DNA of 64,000 nt from Rhizobiaceae bacterium (lineage in GTDB: Bacteria > Pseudomonadota > Alphaproteobacteria > Rhizobiales > Rhizobiaceae): the NCBI GenBank assembly GCA_035503715.1, contig DATJTE010000117.1, positions 4,832 to 68,831 on the forward strand. Reading direction: 5' to 3'. The position numbers and the translations under genes were made by a program. Below, one piece after another: positions 1 through 10,440 of the stretch; positions within the stretch are counted from its first letter, which is position 1, and each line of letters begins with the position of its first letter. The notes under the pieces are model-generated. The model was not told the DNA's origin and made no database searches. It saw nothing but the letters and a program-made list of their open reading frames with translations.

Positions 1-581
1 GCAATGCCGCGAAGGCTGTTGATGCCGATTGAGCGGATCGCATCGATCGTCGGCATGACAGAGGCGGCAAACGCATTTGCTCCGAGAATTGACACCTCTC
101 GGCCGGCCGCCGCCGCCACCGCCGCGTTCGTCGGATTGCCGAGCTTCGTGCCGCGTTCCTTGCGAGCGGCGAGGGCGGCTTTTGTTCTCTCCGATATCTG
201 CCGGCGCTCCTTTTCAGCCAGAGCGGCGTAAAGATGAAGCATGAAAGGATCTGCGTCCGCACCGAGTTCGGCAACGATGAAGGGAACGCGCTGCGCCATC
301 AATCCGGCAATAAAGGCCACGTCGCGCGACAGTCGATCGAGCTTGGCAACCAGGACCGGACACCGCTCCTTGCGCGCCACGGCCAAAGCCGAGGCCAACT
401 GTGGGCGTCTGTCGAGCGCATCAGCACCTTTGCCGGTCTCGACCTCGGCGAATTCGCCGACGATCTGAATGTTCTCAGCTTCAGCAAACCGAGCGACGGC
501 CGATCGTTGCGCTTCAAGGCCAAGCCCTGAACGCCCCTGGCGCTGCGTTGAGACGCGGTAGTAGGCAACAGCGCGCTGCAT
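1..581 (-). CDS. Small serine recombinase (resolvase/invertase family), partial; 3' end runs off the window
   Basis: Not in ORF track (no stop inside window). Own translation of minus strand from ATG at 581: [52 protein letters not shown]...[18 protein letters not shown]... YYRVSTxxQ catalytic-Ser motif and DRLSRD motif; GGAGAG 7 nt upstream of ATG. Confidence 0.8.
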
Positions 582-746: not shown

Positions 747-1640
747 CTAACCAATGAGCGCCGCCCTCAGTGCGGAAATGTCATCCAGAATATGATCGAC
801 GAAGGCAGCAACGCGCGGCGTCCTTCGCATATCCGGATGTGAGAGCAGATACCAGCTGCGAGTTAACTCCTCGACAGGTGCGATGACCTGCACCAAAGTC
901 TCTTCTGCGTCACCCAACGTTGTCGGCAGAGGTGCTATGCCTATGCCTGCTTTAACAGCGGATAATGTTCCCAGCATGCTGTTATTGCGATTCACGATCC
1001 GTGCGTTTGGCACCGCGACCGGAAGCCATTTGGCAACTCGATGGTTCTGCATGATCCCATCGAAGCCGATTATTGCATGGTGTGACAGGTCGGCAATGCG
1101 GCCCGGCCGGCCGTGATGCTGAAGATAGCTTTTGCTAGCGTAGATCGCCCACACAGAGTCACAAATCTTGCGGCCAACCAGACTTTCATCCGAGGGGTCG
1201 CCAGATCGAAAGGCGACGTCAGCCTCACCCTTGGCAATGTCGAGATAGCGGTCGCTGGTCACGAATTCGACCTTTAGCTTTGGATAGCGCTCATGGAACC
1301 TGTCCAACAGACCGGTGGCGACAATTCGTGACACGGTGGGTTCTGGGCAGGTTAGCCTGATCACACCCTCAAGGTCGTCCTTCAATGACCGTATGTGGCG
1401 CTCTAGTTTGTCGATCGAGGTTTCGACGGCGAGAATGTCATCAAGGAGCGTTTGACCGATCTCTGAAAGCCGATAACCGCTCGGATGGCGTGTCACCAGC
1501 GCCAGGCCAATGCGGTTTTCAAGCTCCGCCAGCCGCCGATGAACAGTCGATTGATTGACGCCGAGAGCTTTTGCCGCGGCAAGCGTGCTTCCGTGCCGCG
1601 ACACTGCAATTAGATGGCGGAGGTCGCTCCAGTCGAACAT
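747..1640 (-). CDS. LysR-family transcriptional regulator
   Basis: ORF 747..1697; likely start is internal M (MFDWSDLRHLIAVSRHGSTLAAAKALGVNQSTVHRRLAELE = LysR N-terminal HTH). Divergent from cupin gene with ~100 bp intergenic region. Confidence 0.85.
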   Translation of the reverse strand: MFDWSDLRHLIAVSRHGSTLAAAKALGVNQSTVHRRLAELENRIGLALVTRHPSGYRLSEIGQTLLDDILAVETSIDKLERHIRSLKDDLEGVIRLTCPEPTVSRIVATGLLDRFHERYPKLKVEFVTSDRYLDIAKGEADVAFRSGDPSDESLVGRKICDSVWAIYASKSYLQHHGRPGRIADLSHHAIIGFDGIMQNHRVAKWLPVAVPNARIVNRNNSMLGTLSAVKAGIGIAPLPTTLGDAEETLVQVIAPVEELTRSWYLLSHPDMRRTPRVAAFVDHILDDISALRAALIG

Positions 1641-1739
1641 CCGAGGGTTATGCACTTTTGCGCTTGGGTTTTGCAAACTCGCTGCTGCCGCCGCCAAAGT
1701 CTAGGTTGTAGGGCTTCAATCACTGGATGGAGGAAACAA

Positions 1740-2147
1740 ATGCACGAGAATACCAGCGTCGAGACCATGATTGCGGGCCTGGCGGTTGGCCAGACCCGTA
1801 GCGCGCAGGACAGCGGAATGGCGAAGCTGACTCCGCTGCATCGAGAGCTTGTGCAAGGGATGCCCATGCTTCCCGACCAGGAAGTTCGCGTTCTGTTGGC
1901 GACATTACTTCCCGGCGACGTCACACCACGCCATTCGCATCGCTTCCCGGTGACTGTTTATGTGATTGACGGCACCTTCACGCTTGCTCTTGAGGACAGG
2001 GAACCCGTTGCGATAGGTCCTGGGGAGGTATTCGTTGAGCCCGCCCACGTGACAATGACCGGCCACAACTACGGCGACGTCCCCACGAGAACCGCACTTT
2101 TTTACGTTTGCGAGCCTGATGCTCCATTCGCGGACGCGGTGCGCTAG
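1740..2147 (+). CDS. Cupin-domain protein
   Basis: ATG at 1740 preceded by GGAGGAAACAA. Motif GDVTPRHSHRFPVTVYVIDG...GEVFVEPAHVTMTGHN matches cupin motifs 1 and 2. Divergent partner of the LysR gene. Confidence 0.7.
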   Translation: MHENTSVETMIAGLAVGQTRSAQDSGMAKLTPLHRELVQGMPMLPDQEVRVLLATLLPGDVTPRHSHRFPVTVYVIDGTFTLALEDREPVAIGPGEVFVEPAHVTMTGHNYGDVPTRTALFYVCEPDAPFADAVR

Positions 2148-2338
2148 TCCTAAGAAAGCGGTTCCGAATAAGCCGGCGCGACCCGCCATTCCCTCGCGCC
2201 GGCCCAGTCCGCCGCACCGACAGGGAGCTTATGGGCTCACGCTTCGTTGGGGAGTCTCGGAAGCCGATAAAGACCTGGTGTGTTGTATAAGCAACGGCTC
2301 ATGCGCCTGCTCAGGCAAGGGCAGCACTCGGCTTGAAT

Positions 2339-2767
2339 CTAGTTGCTGCGCGGCTTGCCCAATACCAACTCGACTCCGACCTGCTGATGGCGCTGTGCCA
2401 TCTGCTCGATCTTTTCGGTGAACTGTTCCGCTTCGTATATCGTCTTGAACGTTATGGCGCCGCCGTCAGCACCGCCGTGTTCGTGGACTGAGGTTTCCTT
2501 CCACCGCGCGCGGGTCTTCAGCCAGAAGATTGCTGCCGTGACAGCTTCGCGGCCGTCGCCAGTGGCTTTCCGGTAGAGGTTCTCGGCAACGCGGGCATTG
2601 GCCTTGATATGGCCGCCGGCCAGTTCCTTCTCGTAGCTCGCCTTCAGCTCGTCGGCATCGACATCGACGACACGCGCAATCTCGGCTGCGGACAGACCGT
2701 AGCCAGCCATCGCTTCGACCTTTGATGCCAGCGGGCGATAACCGGGATCGTCTTGATCGTCGGCCAT
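2339..2767 (-). CDS. TerS-like HTH protein, paralogue 1 of 4
   Basis: Start at internal M (MADDQDDPGYRPLASKVEAMAGYGLSAAEIARVV...KANARVAENLYRKATGDGREAVTAAIFWLKTRARWKET). Its ATG shares one nt with the stop of paralogue 2 (TGATG). Confidence 0.7.
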   Translation of the reverse strand: MADDQDDPGYRPLASKVEAMAGYGLSAAEIARVVDVDADELKASYEKELAGGHIKANARVAENLYRKATGDGREAVTAAIFWLKTRARWKETSVHEHGGADGGAITFKTIYEAEQFTEKIEQMAQRHQQVGVELVLGKPRSN

Positions 2768-3102
2768 CACAGGTTCCTGTCGTCGGCATTGAGCAGGAGC
2801 TGCACGCTTGTGTGTTCCTGGACAACGGTCTCTTTCCACCGCGCCCGCGACTTCAACCAAAAGATGGCCGCGGCGACAGCCTCGCGGCTATCACTGGTCG
2901 CTTTGCGATAGAGGTTCTCGGCAACGCGGGCGTTCGCCTTCAGATGGCCCGTCTCGATCTCATAGCCGCATGTCGCCTCGAGAGTGCCGACGTCGATCCT
3001 GAGGATCTTCGCGACCTGCTCCGGCGACAGACCGTAGCCTGTCATTGCTTCGACCTTGGCCGGATCGGGCATGAAGGACGCGATCTCTGGATCTCCACTC
3101 AT
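2767..3102 (-). CDS. TerS-like HTH protein, paralogue 2 of 4
   Basis: KVEAMTGYGLSPEQVAKIL...KANARVAENLYRKATSDSREAVAAAIFWLKSRARWKET; ATGA overlap with the stop of paralogue 3. Confidence 0.7.
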   Translation of the reverse strand: MSGDPEIASFMPDPAKVEAMTGYGLSPEQVAKILRIDVGTLEATCGYEIETGHLKANARVAENLYRKATSDSREAVAAAIFWLKSRARWKETVVQEHTSVQLLLNADDRNL

Positions 3103-3500
3103 TGAAGCAACTCACCGTTCGACGATGCGAGTTTTGGCAGGTCGTGGATGCGGCGGCCGTTCTCCGCAATACGCTGGAGGAGAGCTGCGACCGGGTCGGC
3201 GACATCGTGGCGGACTTCCGTGACGTTGGTCTCTTTCCAATGGGCCCGGCTCTTCAGCCAGAAGATTGCCGCGGTGACCGATTCCTTGCCGCCTTCGCTC
3301 ACCGCCTTCCGATAGAGGCTTTCGGCAACGCGAGCGTTGGCCTTGACGCGACCCGATCGTAGTTCGCGGTCGAAGGTGGTTGCCAGGACGTCTGCATCGG
3401 TGTTCAGCACAAGGGCGATCTCGGCGGCTGTCAGGCCGTAGCCTGCGAGGGCCTCCACCTTGACGGCATCCGGTGATGAGACGGCCTGCGCGTCACTCAT
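3099..3500 (-). CDS. TerS-like HTH protein, paralogue 3 of 4
   Basis: KVEALAGYGLTAAEIALVL...KANARVAESLYRKAVSEGGKESVTAAIFWLKSRAHWKET; 8-nt overlap with the end of paralogue 4. Confidence 0.7.
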   Translation of the reverse strand: MSDAQAVSSPDAVKVEALAGYGLTAAEIALVLNTDADVLATTFDRELRSGRVKANARVAESLYRKAVSEGGKESVTAAIFWLKSRAHWKETNVTEVRHDVADPVAALLQRIAENGRRIHDLPKLASSNGELLQ

Positions 3501-3903
3501 CGGGCGGCCATTTGTCGTACTGGTTGATGGCCAGGCCCGGCATCTTGGCCAGTTCCTCGCGGCTTGGTGAAGTCAGGATGATGCGATTGATCCGGGTGAC
3601 CGGCTGGTGCCCGGTGTGCTCGTTGACCATCGTCTCTTTCCAGGCGGCGCGCGTTTTCAGCCAGAAGATCGCCGCCGTCACGGACTCTCGGCCGTCTCCG
3701 GTCGCCTTTCGATAGAGGTTCTCGGCGACCTTGGCGTTTGCTTTGGCGTGTCCATGATCGAGTTCAAACCGATAGTGCTTTCGAAGCGTCTTCGGATCGA
3801 TGCCGATCATGGCAGCAAGCGACGGTTCTGGCACGCCATAGCCGGCAAGCGCCTCGACCTGGCGCCGGCTGACCTCGTCGGGGAGGTGGGAAGGACGAGC
3901 CAT
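3493..3903 (-). CDS. TerS-like HTH protein, paralogue 4 of 4
   Basis: QVEALAGYGVPEPSLAAMI...KANAKVAENLYRKATGDGRESVTAAIFWLKTRAAWKET; its start shares one nt with the stop of the upstream Cys-rich ORF. Confidence 0.7.
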   Translation of the reverse strand: MARPSHLPDEVSRRQVEALAGYGVPEPSLAAMIGIDPKTLRKHYRFELDHGHAKANAKVAENLYRKATGDGRESVTAAIFWLKTRAAWKETMVNEHTGHQPVTRINRIILTSPSREELAKMPGLAINQYDKWPPDE

Positions 3904-4118
3904 CAGTGCTCGCCGCCTTCGCGCTCTCCAAAACCCTCCGTGTACACAGGCGATTTTGCAAAGCCACGGCCTGGGCTGGGGTTAGGGTCCGTCCCGAGGC
4001 GGAAGGTCCACAAACCGCATGTGTGGACGGGGCATTCCCGCACTTCGACGGGCTGATAGCAGGAGCAGTCGAGACATTTCTGGCGGATGGCCTGCAGGAC
4101 GGCGGCTTTCGTGGTCAT
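3903..4118 (-). CDS. Small Cys-rich (zinc-ribbon-like) phage-type protein, 71 aa
   Basis: IRQKCLDCSCYQPVEVRECPVHTCGLWTFRLG has five Cys in 20 residues. ATGA overlap with the methyltransferase stop. Confidence 0.6.
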   Translation of the reverse strand: MTTKAAVLQAIRQKCLDCSCYQPVEVRECPVHTCGLWTFRLGTDPNPSPGRGFAKSPVYTEGFGEREGGEH

Positions 4119-4987
4119 GCCGGCACCACCATGCGCTCAGCGGCAACCTCGGCGAACGTGCGACCGTCCCCGTCGAGTGTTGCCTGTTTGCCAGTGAACG
4201 CCTGCCATCGCTTCACCGAGACGTCGACGTAGGCAGGATTGAGTTCGATGGCGTGGCAGGCACGTCCCGTAATCTCCGCCGCGATGATCGTCGTGCCGGA
4301 GCCGGAGAAGGGTTCGTAGACGGCCTGGCCGGGCGAGGAGTTGTTCTCGATCGGCCGCTTCATGCACTCGACGGGCTTTTGCGTGCCGTGACCGCTTTCG
4401 GACTTGCGGTGTGGAATGGCCCAGACCGTCGTCTGCTTCCGATCGCCGGCCCAATGGCCGGTCTTGCCTTTCCGGACCGCGTACCAGCAGGGCTCATGTT
4501 GCCAGTGGTAGTCGCCGCGGCCGATGACCAGGCGCGTTTTGTCCCAGATTACCTGCGAGCGAATGGCGAAACCGGAAGCGTCGAGGCTAGCTGCAACAGT
4601 CGAGGCATGAAGTGCGCCGTGCCAGATGTACGCAACATCACCGGGGAACAATGCCCATGCTTCGCGCCAATCCGCCCTATCATCGTTCAGGACGGTACCG
4701 ACCGCGAGTTCCGAGTCGTGCAACTTTTCGCGCCAACTTGGATCATACTCGACACCGTAGGGCGGGTCCGTCACCATCAGATGAGGGCGGATACCGCCAA
4801 AAACACGATCAACCTCAGCCGCGTTGGTGCTGTCGCCGCAGAGGAGCCGATGCCTGCCGAGCAGCCAGACATCACCGGGGCAACTGACTGCCCGCTCGGG
4901 AGCCGTCGGAACCTCGTCGGGATCGGTGAGGCCGGCATTGCCGAGAGAGGTGAGGGAGAGAATTTCGAGATCAGTGAATCCTGTCAA
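4115..4987 (-). CDS. Beta-class N6-adenine/N4-cytosine DNA methyltransferase; possibly a 5'-truncated ParB-MTase fusion
   Basis: GDVWLLGRHRLLCGDSTN, motif IV VTDPPYGVEYD, then motif I VYEPFSGSGTTIIAAEITGR (order IV then I = beta class). Only available start is TTG at 4987. The N-terminal FDLSLTGFTDLEI resembles the ParB-MTase linker (from memory). Confidence 0.8.
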   Translation of the reverse strand: MTGFTDLEILSLTSLGNAGLTDPDEVPTAPERAVSCPGDVWLLGRHRLLCGDSTNAAEVDRVFGGIRPHLMVTDPPYGVEYDPSWREKLHDSELAVGTVLNDDRADWREAWALFPGDVAYIWHGALHASTVAASLDASGFAIRSQVIWDKTRLVIGRGDYHWQHEPCWYAVRKGKTGHWAGDRKQTTVWAIPHRKSESGHGTQKPVECMKRPIENNSSPGQAVYEPFSGSGTTIIAAEITGRACHAIELNPAYVDVSVKRWQAFTGKQATLDGDGRTFAEVAAERMVVPA

Positions 4988-4995
4988 CGACAGGT

Positions 4996-6219
4996 CGAAG
5001 CCAGCGGGAGGCCTGTGAAGCCTATATCGCCAGCCAAAAGTCCGAAGGCTGGGTGCTCGTATCGGATCGCTACGACGACGGCGGCATGTCGGGTGGAACG
5101 CTGGAGCGGCCGGCCTTGCAGCGGCTGATGAGGGACGTGGAGACAGGACTGATCGATGTAGTGGCCGTCTACAAGATCGACCGGCTGTCGCGATCGCTGT
5201 CCGACTTCTCGAAGCTGGTCGATGTGTTCGAGGCGAAAGACGTCACCTTCGTATCGGTGACGCAGTCATTCAATACGACCAGTTCCATGGGCAGGCTGAC
5301 GCTCAACATTCTGCTGTCCTTTGCCCAGTTCGAGCGGGAACTGATCGGCGAGCGCATCCGCGACAAGTTCGCAGCCTCCCGCCGCAAAGGCATGTGGATG
5401 GGCGGCAATGTTCCCTTCGGCTATCGCGTCGCAAACAGGAAGCTGATCATCGAGGAAACCGAAGCTGCGACCATCAGATCGATCTTCCAGCAGTTTATCA
5501 CCGTCGGCTCGGCAACCGTACTTGCGCAGCAACTCACCGCCGAAGGACTGACCCGACGTGACGGCAAACCGTTCGACAAGGGATGGCTCTACAAGCTGCT
5601 CAACAACCGTGTTTATGTTGGAGAAGCGGTTCATAAAGGTCAGAACTACCCCGGCGAACACCAGGCAATCGTCAGCCGCGAGACGTGGGACAAGGTTCAT
5701 TCGATCCTGAAGGAGAGCCCGAGGAAGAGGGCAGGGCAGAGCCGGCGGCAAACACCAGCAGTGCTGAAGGGTCTGATCTTCGCGCCAAACGGACTTGCCA
5801 TGACGCCGACCCACACACGACGGCGCGGCAAGCTCTATCGCTACTATGTGACGACCAGCGTGTTGAAGCTGTCGCCCGAGACCTGTCCTATTCGACGCGT
5901 ACCTGCGGCGGAAATCGAAGCCGCTGTCATCGACCAGCTTCGGATCATCCTCCGCTCCCCGGAAATGATCGTGAAGACATGGGCTGCGGCAAAGGCGGCC
6001 GAGCCTGTCGCCACCGAAGCACAAGTGCGTGAGGCGCTGATTCAGTTCGACGCACTCTGGGATGAACTCTTTCCCGCCGAGCAAGCGCGCATTGTTCAGC
6101 TGCTCGTCGACCGCGTCGACGTCGACATCGGCGGTATCGAAATCAAGTTGCGGGCCGAGGGGATTGGGATGGCCACAGCAGAATTGAAACAGTCGTGTAA
6201 TCTGGCGAGGGCTGCTTGA
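4996..6219 (+). pseudogene. Large serine recombinase, 5'-truncated (catalytic-Ser segment missing)
   Basis: The frame opens at 4978 after a TGA. Recognisable homology starts at QREACEAYIASQKSEGW...YDDGGMSGGTLERPALQRL...VYKIDRLSRSL...FNTTSSMGRLTLNILLSFAQFERE. The expected upstream ~25 aa (AIYxRxSS...SL.A) are absent; the ORF-track start is a GTG at 5053. Confidence 0.75.
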
Positions 6220-6599
6220 GCGACGATGCAACCGTCATTGTTCGGGTCCCGATGTCGCTTAAGAAGCGGGGAGGGCGGAAGGTGATCGTTCCGCCGCCAG
6301 GCGCCGAGACATGGGCTCCCGCGCAGAGAGTGGATGGCACCCTAATCCGAGCACTCGTCCGAGGCTTCGACTGGCGCAAGCAGATCGACATTGGCGTCTA
6401 TCAATCAGTCCGCGAGCTCGCCGCCGCCGAAAATATACGGCCAAGCTACGTCGGGCGAATAATGAACCTGACGATGCTCGCACCGGCAATTGTGGAACGC
6501 ATCCTCGACGGCAATCAGCCCAGAACGCTCTACGCGGAGCTTATCTCGCGAGGCATCCCTGATGACTGGCGAGATCAGTGGCGGCTCATTAACGAGTGA
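6216..6599 (+). CDS. Recombinase-associated ORF; may be the frameshifted C-terminal domain of the recombinase
   Basis: TTGA start/stop overlap with the recombinase ORF. SYVGRIMNLTMLAPAIVERILDGNQPRTL...IPDDWRDQWRL resembles the C-terminal tail of longer homologues (from memory). Confidence 0.5.
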   Translation: MSDDATVIVRVPMSLKKRGGRKVIVPPPGAETWAPAQRVDGTLIRALVRGFDWRKQIDIGVYQSVRELAAAENIRPSYVGRIMNLTMLAPAIVERILDGNQPRTLYAELISRGIPDDWRDQWRLINE

Positions 6600-6644: not shown

Positions 6645-7976
6645 TCAAATGTGCCTTCCAACCAGCCGGTTCAACGCAGCCAGCCCAAGCACCGGTCCTG
6701 GCACCAACGCCAGGAAAACATATTGCGGTCCTGCGGCTTCGATCAGTCGCGCGAGCAGAGCTATCGAAACAATTGTGATCGAAAAGCCGATACAATTGGC
6801 GATGGTTAGCGCGGAGCCGACGAGTTTCGACGGGGCGAAACGAGCATTGAGCGTTGAAAATTGCGGCGAGTCGCCGGCAACGACCACGCCCCAGAACAGG
6901 ACAAAGGCAAGAAAAATCGGCAAGGGCGCCACGAAGGCCAATGGCGAAACGAGACAGCAAAGGCCGGACGCCGACAGCTGCGCAAAGGCGACGCGCGCAC
7001 TACCGGTGGTGCGCGAGAGATAACCGCCGGCTATGCAGCCAAGAAAGCCTGAGGCGATGGCAGCAAAACTCCACACCGAAACTGCGGCGTCGCCGGTTCC
7101 CAAGCGCGCCGCCAGAAGCACAGGGAGAAAGGCATAAAACGCGTAGAGTTCCCACATATGGCCGAAATAGCCGAAGGCCGACGCCCTAAAATCGGCCGAG
7201 CGGAAGATCGCCGCGAATGCGGTGGGGTCGAACTTGGCGCCCGTTTTGAGATAAGGTCCATCCGGCACGAGAACGAGCATCGCCAGACCTCCGGCGACCG
7301 ATATCGCCGAGACGGACAGGATCACGCCCTGCCACGGCAGATCGCCTCCCAAGCCCCTGATGAGATGCGGAAGCGCAGTTCCGAGCACCAACGCTCCGAC
7401 CAGCCAGCCGAGCGCTAGCCCCAGGTCACGGTCGTACCAGCCCGAAGCAATCTTCATGCCCACGGGATACATTCCGGCGAGAAAGAAGCCCGTGGCAAAA
7501 CGCGCCACGAGCAACGGCAGGAGTTCGCCGCCGCTGGCGAGCGTCGTGGCATTGGCGGTCGCACCGGCGAGCGCCGATAGGAAGAAGATAATACGTGGCG
7601 AATAGCGATCGGAGACCGCCAGCCAAGCGAAGACCAGCGTACCCGCGATGAAGCCGAACTGCACGGCAATCGTAATGTTGCCGACGGCAGAGGAGGGGAG
7701 CCCGGCGGTGCGTTGCAGATCGGGCAGCACTGCATTGCCGGCGAACCATAGCGACGTCGCGGCGAACTGCGAGATTACGATGGTGGGCAGGATGCGAACA
7801 GGAACAGCAGCCAAGGCGGAATTCTCGTTGCGACGTCCTTGTTCCAAGCTCCTGTCACATTCGGTCGTAGTCGTCCAATGGCATACCGACAACTCAGACC
7901 AACACCGGAGTATCGAATGTCTCAGGCGGCGAAAACGGTCTGTCGGCTTTCGGCGAGGATTGGCAGTAGGCTGCAT
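6645..7976 (-). CDS. MFS transporter (start codon uncertain; the first ~45 codons of the ORF are probably not coding)
   Basis: About 12 hydrophobic segments from ...ILPTIVISQFAATSLWFAGNAVLPDL... to ...VFLALVPGPVLGLAAL; no ATG near the first TM segment. Confidence 0.75.
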   Translation of the reverse strand: MQPTANPRRKPTDRFRRLRHSILRCWSELSVCHWTTTTECDRSLEQGRRNENSALAAVPVRILPTIVISQFAATSLWFAGNAVLPDLQRTAGLPSSAVGNITIAVQFGFIAGTLVFAWLAVSDRYSPRIIFFLSALAGATANATTLASGGELLPLLVARFATGFFLAGMYPVGMKIASGWYDRDLGLALGWLVGALVLGTALPHLIRGLGGDLPWQGVILSVSAISVAGGLAMLVLVPDGPYLKTGAKFDPTAFAAIFRSADFRASAFGYFGHMWELYAFYAFLPVLLAARLGTGDAAVSVWSFAAIASGFLGCIAGGYLSRTTGSARVAFAQLSASGLCCLVSPLAFVAPLPIFLAFVLFWGVVVAGDSPQFSTLNARFAPSKLVGSALTIANCIGFSITIVSIALLARLIEAAGPQYVFLALVPGPVLGLAALNRLVGRHI

Positions 7977-8319
7977 AGGGCTGCCGGATTGGTCAAGTTA
8001 TCTCGTTTGTTCCCGACCTATTGTTGCCGCTCGAATTTCATGACGCGGATACTGCCGATGGGCATGATTCGTCGGTCAACTCGCCATGGCAAAGCCTTCG
8101 TGTGCAATGACGCTAAGCGCAAAGAACCGCGAAAATGCGCGAGACATGCCCCGGACGCGCGAAATGAGCTGATTTTCTCCAGCGGCCAGCAACTTTAGTA
8201 GCGAGAGCCATTTTCATTGCCCCAGGTACACAGAGAAACATCGCGGCAGATCAGGGCTGCCCCTCACTTCCAATAGGTAAACAGGTTTGGTATCGACCGC
8301 CTGGGTGAGAGGTTGGCGA

Positions 8320-10440
8320 ATGGTCACAATTAATGAATCCGGCAAGTACACGCTTTTCAGTTCACTGACCGGCAGGCCGGAAATAGATTCGCTCACGCGC
8401 GGGGTTAAATGGGGCGGCGCCGTTGGAACGGGCGCCACGGTCACTTACAGCTTTCCGGGCACCGGCGGATCGGAATCATACTGGTCGTCGTCCTATCCGC
8501 CGGCGCCCCTCGCTCACATCACTTACATGTCTGCGGACGAGCGCGCCGCCATTCGCGACGTGCTCTCCATTTTCAGCATGTATGCCAACATCAAATTCGT
8601 CGAAGTGACCGACGGCCGCTCGGTCGGCCAGATGCGTTTCGCAAAATCTAATATCGATGGATTCGGAGGCAAGCTCGCGGTTGCCTATCCCATCGCCAAC
8701 AACCCTCAAGCCGGGGACGTCTGGTTCGACAGGTCGGATCCATTGAGTGGCCTCACCGGTACGGTTGGGGCGGCAAGATATGTGGCTCTTCATGAGATCG
8801 GGCATGCGCTCGGATTGAAGCACCCGAACGAGGGCGCTATCCAGTCGAGCCTCAACATGGACCCTGCGAATTCCGTCATGGGGCCGGTCATTCCGACCAT
8901 CGGTGGCATGTACGGCAGTTGGGCATCCCCTATGCTCAACGATGTGTTGGCGCTCCAGCGCCTTTACGGAAAGAACATTCACTTCAATACCGACAATACG
9001 CTCTACAACGCGAACAAGCTTTGGCAGACGTTCGGCGGAAGTGGGACCCATAGCGCTCTGTGGGACGCCGGAGGCATCGACACTCTCGTGATCAATGTCG
9101 TCGAGTTCTCTCTCGACCCGCTGCATCCGAAGGACCAGGGTCTGCGAATTGTGCCGGGCGCGGTCATCGAGAATCTGACAACCCGCTACGGGTACGGAAC
9201 GATCCTGGGTAATTCCGCCAATAACGTGATCAAGCTGAACGGCGATATGATGCCGCCGAATTATTCCGGCCAATGGAGTTCACGGCCCGGCGCGGATATC
9301 CGAACAGGTCTTGGAAACGATACGGTTTATCTCCCCGGCCGCTATTACGACATTTTCGGACCGATCACGATCGACCAAAATCCGCTGTTTTCGCCCAACC
9401 TGGTCTATGCCGGGAGCGGCAACGACACGCTCTACGGCAGCCCTGAAATCGATAACCTCTATGGGGAAAGCGGCAACGACTATTTCCGGCCGGGCTTGTC
9501 GATCGACCTGGTCAATGGCGGCAGCGGTTCCGACACGGTCGACTATTCGACCAGTTCGGTTTTTCTCGAAATCTCCCTGAGCGCGGCCGGTAACGCCACC
9601 GTGTCGCTGGGAGGCACTCCTTTCGACACGCTGCTTTCAATCGAGAATCTCACCGGCGGTTCAGGCAACGACGTGCTGTTTGGGAATGACGGCAGCGCCG
9701 TGGCGAACTTCCTGCGTGGCGGCAAGGGCTCCGACAGCCTTAACGGCCAGCAGGGAAATGACACGCTCCAGGGTGGCCTGGGCTACGATTATCTTACCGG
9801 CGGGACGGGTTCCGATTTCGCTGACTATTCGGACCGGTCGCTCGCGGTATCTGTAACGCTGATCGCCGGCGCAACCGTCCAAGCACGCGTCAACGGGATC
9901 GTCGAAGACGATTTGATCAGCATCGAGAACCTTCGCGGCGGTGGAGGCCGGGACAGGTTCATCGGCAGCACGGGCGCCAATATTTTGGATGGAGGGGCTG
10001 GCGACGACCAGCTGGCCGGCGGTATCGGGAGTGATACGCTGTATGGTGGAGCCGGAAATGACCGCCTTAGAGGCGACGCCGGCACAGACAAACTCAACGG
10101 CGGCTTAGGCAAGGACATGCTCACCGGCGGCGCCGATGCCGATCTCTTCATCTTCTCGGCCAAGACTCATTCGGTTGTGGGGATTAACGCCGACCGCATT
10201 CTTGATTTTGATGACGGCAACACCGGCGACCGGATCGATATCTCGGCGCTGTTCGGTCCAGCGATGACCTATCGCCACAATCTCGTCTTCACCGGTGCCG
10301 GTCAGGTCCGCATCAACGACATTGCCGGCGCGGACGTAATCGTGGAGGTCAATACCGGCGGGACGCTCGCGGCGGATTTCTCGATCCGGCTCGTCAACAC
10401 GACATTGAGCAGCATGAATGCCGGCGACTTTGTGTTGTAG
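8320..10440 (+). CDS. Secreted M10/serralysin-type zinc metalloprotease with C-terminal RTX Ca-binding repeats (type I secretion substrate)
   Basis: ATG 8320 with GAGAGG 7 nt upstream. HEIGHALGLKHP zinc motif, NSVMGP Met-turn-like, many GGxGxD nonapeptides (GGSGNDVLFG, GGKGSDSLNG, GGTGSDFADY, GGAGDDQLAG, GGAGNDRLRG, GGLGKDMLTG). No N-terminal signal peptide; C-terminal ...DFVL. Confidence 0.85.
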   Translation: MVTINESGKYTLFSSLTGRPEIDSLTRGVKWGGAVGTGATVTYSFPGTGGSESYWSSSYPPAPLAHITYMSADERAAIRDVLSIFSMYANIKFVEVTDGRSVGQMRFAKSNIDGFGGKLAVAYPIANNPQAGDVWFDRSDPLSGLTGTVGAARYVALHEIGHALGLKHPNEGAIQSSLNMDPANSVMGPVIPTIGGMYGSWASPMLNDVLALQRLYGKNIHFNTDNTLYNANKLWQTFGGSGTHSALWDAGGIDTLVINVVEFSLDPLHPKDQGLRIVPGAVIENLTTRYGYGTILGNSANNVIKLNGDMMPPNYSGQWSSRPGADIRTGLGNDTVYLPGRYYDIFGPITIDQNPLFSPNLVYAGSGNDTLYGSPEIDNLYGESGNDYFRPGLSIDLVNGGSGSDTVDYSTSSVFLEISLSAAGNATVSLGGTPFDTLLSIENLTGGSGNDVLFGNDGSAVANFLRGGKGSDSLNGQQGNDTLQGGLGYDYLTGGTGSDFADYSDRSLAVSVTLIAGATVQARVNGIVEDDLISIENLRGGGGRDRFIGSTGANILDGGAGDDQLAGGIGSDTLYGGAGNDRLRGDAGTDKLNGGLGKDMLTGGADADLFIFSAKTHSVVGINADRILDFDDGNTGDRIDISALFGPAMTYRHNLVFTGAGQVRINDIAGADVIVEVNTGGTLAADFSIRLVNTTLSSMNAGDFVL

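Follow-up and report, generated by a model that had tools for sequence, protein, structure and literature searches.

In the stretch of Rhizobiaceae DNA analysed here (64,000 nucleotides of contig DATJTE010000117.1; hereafter the window), six open reading frames (ORFs) on the minus strand between positions 2339 and 4987 encode the remnant of a DNA methyltransferase (MT), a small Cys-rich protein and four paralogous proteins, T1 to T4, related to the small terminase subunit (TerS) of phages. We propose that this module is, on balance, probably the packaging end of a degraded island, which would belong to an undescribed family of putative phage satellites similar in gene content to the phage-inducible chromosomal islands (PICIs) and present in Hyphomicrobiales and related Alphaproteobacteria. 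Successive ORFs overlap by 4, 1, 8, 4 and 1 nt, and these overlaps and the coordinates are exactly those given in an initial annotation of the window, made from its letters alone. The database records HTV69114-HTV69119 (metagenome-assembled genome, MAG, of 'Rhizobiaceae bacterium') hold the exact window proteins, with T1-T4 labelled hypothetical, and a megablast of the region against plasmids gave no match. The value of the finding lies at the level of the family, namely widespread, unannotated PICI-like islands with a tandem TerS array, maintained by selection, as their hallmark.

T1-T4 as putative small terminases

The four paralogues are 48-56% identical to each other over their full length and 52-64% over their common core, a range that starts somewhat below the 55-65% estimated earlier by eye, and past the WKET motif their C-terminal tails are mutually unlike, as had been noticed. 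Their alignment contains 43 invariant columns, mostly in VEA..GYG and KANA.VAE.LYRKA...AAIFWLK.RA.WKET, and a hidden Markov model of the core scores each protein at 148-160 bits, a resemblance far beyond chance. At the DNA level the cores are 65-80% alike, and a repeat search returned these paralogous cores only, with no separate repeat array and no candidate pac or att repeats. All four ORFs are intact and retain every invariant core residue.

In a profile search of PHROGs, T1-T4 matched phrog_309, 'terminase small subunit', with E values of 9e-18, 8e-13, 3e-10 and 3e-19, respectively, and the TerS resemblance proposed in the initial annotation was thereby borne out. Searches against Pfam, NCBIfam and PADLOC gave nothing meaningful, sequence and profile searches of the PDB gave no relative, and none of these resources claims the core for a known regulator family. 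A single-sequence search of the PDB also pointed to RecA, but these hits added up weak matches to chains with several fused copies, contained no passing stretch and were discarded. The T family has about 1,560 database homologues, all unnamed and none with a Pfam domain. In the AlphaFold2 (AF2) model of T4, a three-helix helix-turn-helix (HTH) at residues 14-44 (predicted local distance difference test, pLDDT, above 90) is followed by two long helices at residues 46-89 (pLDDT 66-82). A Foldseek search of BFVD with this model found uncharacterised phage proteins at E values of 2e-5 to 1e-3 and, among the lower matches, entries named 'Terminase small subunit' and 'Homeodomain phBC6A51-type', those labelled TerS at E values of 0.05 and above.

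The family was expected to occur normally as a single gene beside the one for the large terminase subunit (TerL), and this is what phage genomes display. Among cultured phages, tblastn detected a homologue in 15 records, one copy apiece, and in the three records inspected (Caudoviricetes MW202481, Psychrobacter phage Y8A and Vibrio phage Vaitephage) it lies directly before the large terminase and portal genes; the Y8A record annotates it as TerS. Likewise, exactly one intact copy is found in 76 of 80 IMG/VR contigs, in most of them directly upstream of TerL, the usual order being ParB-methyltransferase, T, TerL and portal. Phage contigs are practically devoid of arrays: the sole multi-copy IMG/VR contig (L084), with the methylase and three T genes but no TerL, is itself island-like. 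The ORFs downstream of phage T genes fall into nine classes, six of them with Pfam TerL domains in the class representatives, and the TerL partners come from at least three Pfam families (Terminase_3 with 6C, TerL_ATPase with TerL_nuclease, and Terminase_6N). Because of this profile similarity and the invariant gene position in phages, with no solved structure behind the assignment, T1-T4 are placed in the phage small-terminase family as putative members. In agreement with the initial annotation, a tblastn search with 67 phage TerL candidates as queries found no TerL homologue anywhere in the 64 kb of the window, so T1-T4 have no adjoining cognate TerL.

Related islands

A genome scan, based on one genome per species and on flanks of 10 kb, recovered 80 related loci from Mesorhizobium, Bauldia, Zhengella, Aquibium, Propylenella, Azospirillaceae and alphaproteobacterial MAGs. 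There are often several per genome, which suggests an actively spreading element family. According to a map assembled from ORF clustering and annotation across loci, one strand of the island encodes a phrog_14161 protein, a large serine recombinase, DUF2924 and a small ORF, and the opposite strand an HTH_17 (AlpA/excisionase-like) protein, a replication module, sometimes cargo, and a packaging module composed of a ParB-methyltransferase, an optional Cys-rich gene and one to five T genes. The replication module varies among islands and may be a Prim-Pol, a D5_N/DUF5906 primase-helicase, an AAA_25 helicase or a Toprim primase. Of the related loci, 23 have a large serine recombinase and 20 an HTH_17/phrog_66 protein, which is also found in L164, one of the closest relatives of the window, and in intact relatives the distance from the recombinase partner to the last packaging gene is 7.8-10.9 kb. 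Next to the array, 14 loci carry a P27-type TerS (Pfam Terminase_4) unrelated to the T family; the islands collect TerS genes from two different families.

TerL occurs in only 10 of the 80 loci, the other 70 having none within 10 kb, and portal, capsid, tail and lysis genes are missing from nearly all island loci. The sole locus that looks like a full prophage is L072, an ordinary one with portal and capsid. Three independent internal-deletion variants (L015, L024 and L074) hold little beyond the recombinase and the array and, together with the window, represent either frequent decay or persisting minimal forms. The initial annotation knew of no description of such arrays, and literature searches for tandem or multiple TerS and for rhizobial satellites with serine recombinases found none in the literature covered.

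Homologues of the Cys-rich gene occupy the same position, between methylase and TerS array, in 18 related loci and in L164, and the gene was not found between methylase and TerS in phage contigs. The protein belongs to no family in Pfam, PHROGs, NCBIfam or PADLOC. A conserved CLDC...EVR.C....C.LW.FR.G motif, zinc-ribbon-like, is shared by the window protein (3903-4118) and its counterpart at L164:5215-5544.

Several further observations were made on individual islands. Two of them lie 34 kb apart in M. wenxiniae, and three are found in each of M. temperatum and Mesorhizobium sp. Root552; among MAGs, MFD02416.bin.1.58 has four on one contig and OH_PBB_171 has three. P27-family TerS genes are found, for example, at L006:11053-11526 and in L007, L008, L009, L011, L028, L031, L033, L036, L042 and L050. 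A complete terminase of the island's own, consisting of a single T and a Terminase_3 TerL after it, is followed by non-phage genes, with no portal or capsid, at L013:10434-11705 and L033:10417-11691, and also in L016, L021 and L039. In about 10 loci (L050:4958-6850, L018:1632-2447) and at L167:148-2843, the interval from recombinase to replication genes holds a QatC-like cargo gene (PADLOC QatC, E = 1.5e-58) with an unannotated partner, possibly an anti-phage system.

Copy number, orthology and selection

At least one intact T copy is present in 74 of 81 loci (the 80 and the window), some of the singles being cut by contig ends. One copy was counted in 34 loci, two in 28, three in 8, four in 3 and five in 1, and multi-copy arrays are hence found in 40 of the 74, across several genera. 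Such arrays are common, as the initial annotation had considered they might prove to be, but they lie in TerL-less islands and not in intact prophages, and every member is labelled 'hypothetical'.

A neighbour-joining tree resolves paralogue clades common to several genera, in which the first and second copies of Mesorhizobium arrays are joined by T1 and T4, respectively. In the closest relatives, L164-L168 from soil metagenomes, intact arrays of four copies follow the HTH_17, Prim-Pol, ParB-methylase and Cys-rich genes. The four types of the window correspond one-to-one, tails conserved, to orthologues in L164, with the two middle genes in swapped order: T1 to L164.1 (81% identity, ratio of nonsynonymous to synonymous divergence, dN/dS, 0.08), T2 to L164.3 (72%, 0.18), T3 to L164.2 (72%, tail conserved, 0.14) and T4 to L164.4 (73%, tail conserved, 0.34). 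Between positional orthologues the dN/dS of the core is 0.04-0.20 at each array position, the tails evolving faster (0.2-0.46 for window versus L164). The ratio near 1 that would have spoken for decaying DNA was not observed, the values for orthologues being 0.04-0.34. In the comparison of L164 with L167, in which dS is not saturated (0.24-0.5), dN/dS is 0.13 for two types. The window paralogues have diverged to saturation at synonymous sites (dS above 1), and a recent tandem duplication was rejected on the basis of this saturation and of the cross-genus orthologues of each type. These comparisons indicate an array that is ancient and, at the family level, under purifying selection.

C-terminal tails and recognition helix

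Across loci the tails fall into recurrent classes; that of T2, DP..LL..VAE.GRRIHD, is found in five copies from Bauldia and other MAGs (L023.2, L027.3, L030.3, L037.2 and L039.1). In phages, pairs with similar tails have a TerL of the same class in 128 of 135 cases against 43 expected, the maximum in 1,000 label permutations being 67. Phage tails of the TerL_ATPase type resemble LGKKE...EWGRLVN, and those of the Terminase_3 type are short and beta-strand-like. The C-terminal part of TerS contacts TerL, and the finding that the tail tracks the TerL class fits this contact. The tails of Mesorhizobium first copies match phage tails paired with a Terminase_3 TerL, and those of two third or fourth array copies match phage tails of another TerL class. 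The first copies of L164 and L167 are 99% identical up to WKET (dN 0.005) and their tails are 49% identical, which indicates that tails are exchanged as modules by recombination between islands. This pair lies at L164:5546-5962 and L167:8814-9230, and L164.2 and L167.2 likewise combine near-identical cores with unrelated tails.

The putative recognition helix, helix 3 of the HTH, has a TLxx[HYW][YFW] motif (e.g. DPKTLRKHYRxEL). Of the phage copies, 70 of 75 contain it; in arrays it is found in 39 of the 40 first copies and in no more than 30 of the 57 later ones. In the window T1 has the motif (DPKTLRKHYRFEL) and a net charge of +2, whereas T2-T4 do not have it and carry a net charge of -3, T4 displaying a divergent, acidic helix (DADELKASYEKEL). 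Two kinds of array occur: in one, seen in the window and Mesorhizobium (Cd, Cdd, Cddd), a canonical copy (C) precedes divergent ones (d); the other, seen in Bauldia-like MAGs, has canonical copies only, up to CCCCC.

Relic state of the window element

The methyltransferase had been described as the translationally coupled first gene, and this part of the initial annotation had to be abandoned. MT comprises only the last two thirds of a fused ParB-methyltransferase, its match to phrog_498 being confined to positions 152-444 of 633; its methylase domain is recognised (PF01555, E = 2e-19) and the ParB_N domain is missing, full-length relatives having 440-486 aa and both domains. Homology extends upstream of the TTG start, before which no Shine-Dalgarno sequence is found. 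The decay suspected for the element was confirmed by a deletion junction between methylase and recombinase homology, where, from a reading of the sequence against intact loci, divergently oriented gene remnants are fused cleanly. In related loci 5-7 kb separate recombinase and methylase, and this stretch is missing in the window; the deletion has removed DUF2924, the AlpA-like HTH, the primase/helicase, cargo and both promoters. The large serine recombinase on the far side of the junction matches the phrog_95 integrase and contains the Recombinase and Zn_ribbon_recom domains, and its match to the Resolvase profile begins only at position 35 of 145. Its relatives align from residue 1 of the ORF and reach further N-terminally; the window recombinase lacks the N-terminus with the catalytic serine and is presumably inactive. 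A promoter and terminator scan of positions 1900-5400 found no promoter-like site and nothing above shuffled expectation, and the promoter of the module has probably been lost. With the recombinase, regulator and replication genes gone, the island would be unable to mobilise itself. As read from its sequence, the module is the packaging end of a dead island, intact in appearance but unable to move by itself, in a relic that spans 4.3 kb.

Possible function of the array

In an intact island, infection by or induction of a helper phage would lead to excision and replication, and an island TerS would then recruit the helper's TerL onto island DNA, so that the island would be packaged in helper capsids. 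The helical core common to the paralogues is the presumed ring-forming part and the differing tails would be the part that docks to TerL, as in known TerS proteins; since the core is shared and the tails differ, the array may supply adaptors for, or modulators of, different helper terminases. In arrays of the window type T1 alone keeps the phage-type DNA-recognition helix, and the acidic, divergent helix of T2-T4 implies that pac recognition was probably changed or lost. The deletion that removed the middle of the window island also truncated its methylase and presumably inactivated its recombinase, leaving a stranded relic. Taken together, the clues favour a packaging-redirection module with specialised members, which might be adaptors, subunits of a mixed ring or TerL-binding decoys, and among the three options of the initial annotation (a hetero-oligomeric ring, satellite-like variants for packaging or hijacking, and regulators) the second is the best fit. 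A more specific version is tentative and, in our view, possible without being probable: the array would be a modular adaptor to several helpers, with a single ring-forming core, with swappable tails that dock Terminase_3, TerL_ATPase/nuclease and Terminase_6N enzymes, and with derived copies that no longer recognise pac in the phage manner and act as island-specific specifiers or as TerL blockers. If so, one small island could parasitise or interfere with several unrelated phages.

Several points weigh against a satellite origin with a role in packaging. The satellite label rests on gene content, helper phage, excision, replication and packaging being unobserved, and among the annotated conserved families no gene for capsid morphogenesis or remodelling or for helper interference was recognised, several small ORFs being unannotated. 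For the window copy there is neither a promoter-like site nor a close relative, and its recombinase is dead. The association between tail and TerL class in phages is partly inflated by common descent, and when array tails were matched to phage tails by short BLAST (E < 0.05), no more than 30 of the 131 could be placed, the four of the window not among them. Loss of the helix motif in T2-T4 suits an altered function at least as well as a simple duplication of adaptors. Outside the HTH the AF2 model of T4 has only moderate confidence, with a weakly predicted tail helix, and Foldseek found no significant match to it in the PDB, two TerS entries (2ao9 and 4dzj) being among the weak matches at E > 1.

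Instead of acting separately, the paralogues might co-assemble through the helical core into a hetero-oligomeric TerS ring, a single composite machine with one canonical DNA-binding subunit and divergent ones. We regard this as unlikely, despite several features that point to it: the strongest conservation among the paralogues is in the long-helix stretch KANA.VAE.LYRKA...AAIFWLK.RA.WKE, the likely oligomerisation core; the gene overlaps of 1-8 nt suggest co-translation; the canonical copy comes first in nearly every array; and the same four types occur together in L164, L167 and the window. However, copy number ranges from 1 to 5, the combinations of types vary between related islands, the middle copies come in a different order in the window and in L164, arrays made only of canonical copies (CC to CCCCC) exist, and conservation of the helical core is just as strong in the single-copy TerS of phages, hence not specific to arrays. 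Rather improbable is a function as anti-phage decoys, by which T2-T4, without pac recognition and with TerL-docking tails, would sequester or poison the terminases of invading phages and so benefit island or host even when the island is immobile. Such a function would suit the loss of the helix-3 motif in T2-T4 and in half of the later array copies, compared with its retention in phages, as well as the independent deletion variants that retain just recombinase and array and the defence cargo, such as QatC, of relatives; a precedent is the inhibition of phage TerL by the satellite protein Gpi of PLE (PMC11417361). On the other hand, T1-T4 have no PADLOC match, the window array has neither a promoter-like site nor any sign of expression, and the all-canonical arrays of Bauldia-like MAGs misfit a pure decoy model.

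It is very unlikely that the array is inert debris, left by tandem duplication in a dying prophage and functionless here and in relatives. The window element is degraded, with its dead recombinase, truncated methylase, lost replication module and missing promoter-like site, and 24 partial or frameshifted T fragments are found among 155 copies in related loci; nevertheless, the saturated dS between the window paralogues means an old duplication, orthologues with conserved tails are kept in intact arrays at a dN/dS of 0.08-0.34, arrays recur in more than half of the loci with intact copies, in several genera, and the window ORFs are all undamaged. Debris is thus contradicted at the family level, and a loss of function after the deletion may apply to the window copy alone. 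Least probable of all is a role as transcription regulators that control island or host genes with no part in packaging, the third option of the initial annotation, for which no support was obtained. The confidently predicted N-terminal HTH, non-significant PDB fold matches (E > 1) to TetR/LuxR-type HTH regulators and one weak match of T3 to an excisionase PHROG (E = 0.096) would be in line with it, but no regulator family of Pfam or NCBIfam is matched, the position directly upstream of TerL is invariant in phages, the tail covaries with TerL class and the significant BFVD matches are phage proteins.

Comparison with known systems

The Staphylococcus aureus pathogenicity islands (SaPIs) are packaged through pairing of their TerS with the TerL of the helper. 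The intact relatives of the window element, as parts of a putative satellite family, resemble the PICIs of this and of the enterobacterial type in having the PICI core set, accessory genes after terS, a length of about 8-11 kb and no structural or lysis genes; this core set comprises integrase, AlpA-type regulator, primase-replicase and TerS, in elements of median 9.5 kb (PMC10085698). They differ from PICIs in their large serine recombinase with DUF2924 and phrog_14161 partners, in the ParB-methylase that precedes TerS, in a TerS multiplied one to five times and sometimes joined by the unrelated P27-type TerS, and in their Hyphomicrobiales hosts. No homologue of the capsid-morphogenesis, Ppi or Rpp proteins of PICIs was recognised in the islands. 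In the Vibrio cholerae satellite PLE, more than one small protein (Gpi, GpsA and GpsB) manipulates the helper TerL and specifies packaging of the satellite's own genome (PMC11417361). PLE would thus be a parallel of a satellite with several small packaging proteins acting on a helper TerL; the island proteins, for their part, are paralogues of a genuine TerS family.

Among phage TerS, the nearest group is PHROG 309 (phBC6A51/homeodomain-like class), itself with no Pfam model and no solved structure, with which T1-T4 share profile membership, a length of 110-145 aa, an N-terminal HTH, long helices and a short tail; in contrast to it, the window has four tandem copies, three of them without the helix-3 motif, and no TerL. 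The order of methylase (phrog_498), Cys-rich gene, where present, and TerS recalls the start of a prophage late operon (ParB-N6/N4 methyltransferase, TerS, TerL, portal), but the window and about 70 of the 80 related loci have no TerL, portal or structural genes. The window likewise differs from an intact prophage in its flanks, which encode a LysR regulator, a cupin, a major facilitator superfamily (MFS) transporter and a repeats-in-toxin (RTX)-type protein.

Phage satellites have been studied extensively in Firmicutes and Gammaproteobacteria; no family of them is known to us from rhizobia and related bacteria. If the islands are satellites, they would form a new and abundant family, often with several members per genome, in the agriculturally important Mesorhizobium and in soil Alphaproteobacteria. 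To our knowledge, how TerS chooses its TerL partner and its DNA is unsettled even for model phages, and the arrays, with a conserved core, swapped tails and a helix that is either canonical or lost, constitute a natural experiment on this choice. In practical terms, about 1,500 database homologues of the T family now labelled 'hypothetical' could be annotated as TerS-family proteins, and tools for satellite detection could gain a model that combines a serine recombinase with multiple TerS genes.

Ends of the element and neighbouring genes

The features of the locus are collected in Table 1. At the left end of the element, and marking it, lies the phrog_14161 gene, a neighbour of the recombinase gene in 18 related loci; the MFS transporter gene comes next. 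On the other side, the cupin that the initial annotation took for a chromosomal neighbour is indeed present, but it cannot be placed plainly outside the element, since a small serine recombinase lies beyond the cupin and LysR genes. This recombinase is 78% identical to the product of the gene after the L010 array, is of the phrog_125 invertase type in relatives, and is found 0.02-8 kb downstream of arrays in 48 of the 80 related loci, the gene content in between differing from locus to locus. Either the element ends with this gene, in which case LysR and cupin would be cargo, or the gene is a conserved, perhaps integration-related, neighbour and the two may be host DNA. Shuffling of the tails by this invertase-type recombinase, in the manner of Gin/Cin, was considered and rejected, as all copies are complete ORFs in one orientation.

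Table 1. Position and characteristics of the features in the module, in the element remnant and in its flanks.
Feature	Position	Strand	Characteristics
Small serine recombinase, resolvase/invertase type	3-581	-	PF00239, E = 6e-25; cut by window edge
LysR regulator	747-1697	-	Pfam LysR_substrate, HTH_1
Cupin	1614-2147	+	Cupin_2
T4, TerS-like paralogue 'type D'	2767-2339	-	142 aa from ATG, mechanical ORF beginning upstream at TTG 2860; tail ...ITFKTIYEAE...
T3, TerS-like paralogue 'type C'	3102-2767	-	111 aa; divergent helix 3; very short tail VQLLLNADDRNL
T2, TerS-like paralogue 'type B'	3500-3099	-	133 aa; divergent helix 3; tail DPVAALLQRIAENGRRIHD
T1, putative canonical TerS 'type A'	3903-3493	-	136 aa; phage-type helix 3 DPKTLRKHYRFEL; tail ...RINRIILTSP...YDKWPPDE
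Cys-rich protein	4118-3903	-	71 aa; motif CLDCSC...EVRECPVHTC; putative zinc ribbon
MT	4987-4115	-	290 aa ORF, TTG start
ParB-N6/N4 DNA methyltransferase remnant	4115-5002	-	Homology past the TTG up to 'GFDLS', about 5002
Deletion junction	about 5003-5021		Methylase homology ends at about 5002, recombinase homology starts at about 5022
Large serine recombinase remnant	5022-6219 (ORF 5053-6219)	+	Homology from 'EAYIASQKSEGW', about 5022
Small partner protein of recombinase, phrog_14161	6216-6599	+	E = 6e-34
MFS transporter	6645-7976		After the phrog_14161 gene

Further along the same flank, a 717-aa ORF (8287-10440, plus strand) combines an HExxH zinc-metalloprotease motif with many GGxGxD-type repeats, as in a serralysin/RTX-like secreted protein, and the arrays of L164 and L167 are also flanked by RTX-type (HemolysinCabind) genes.

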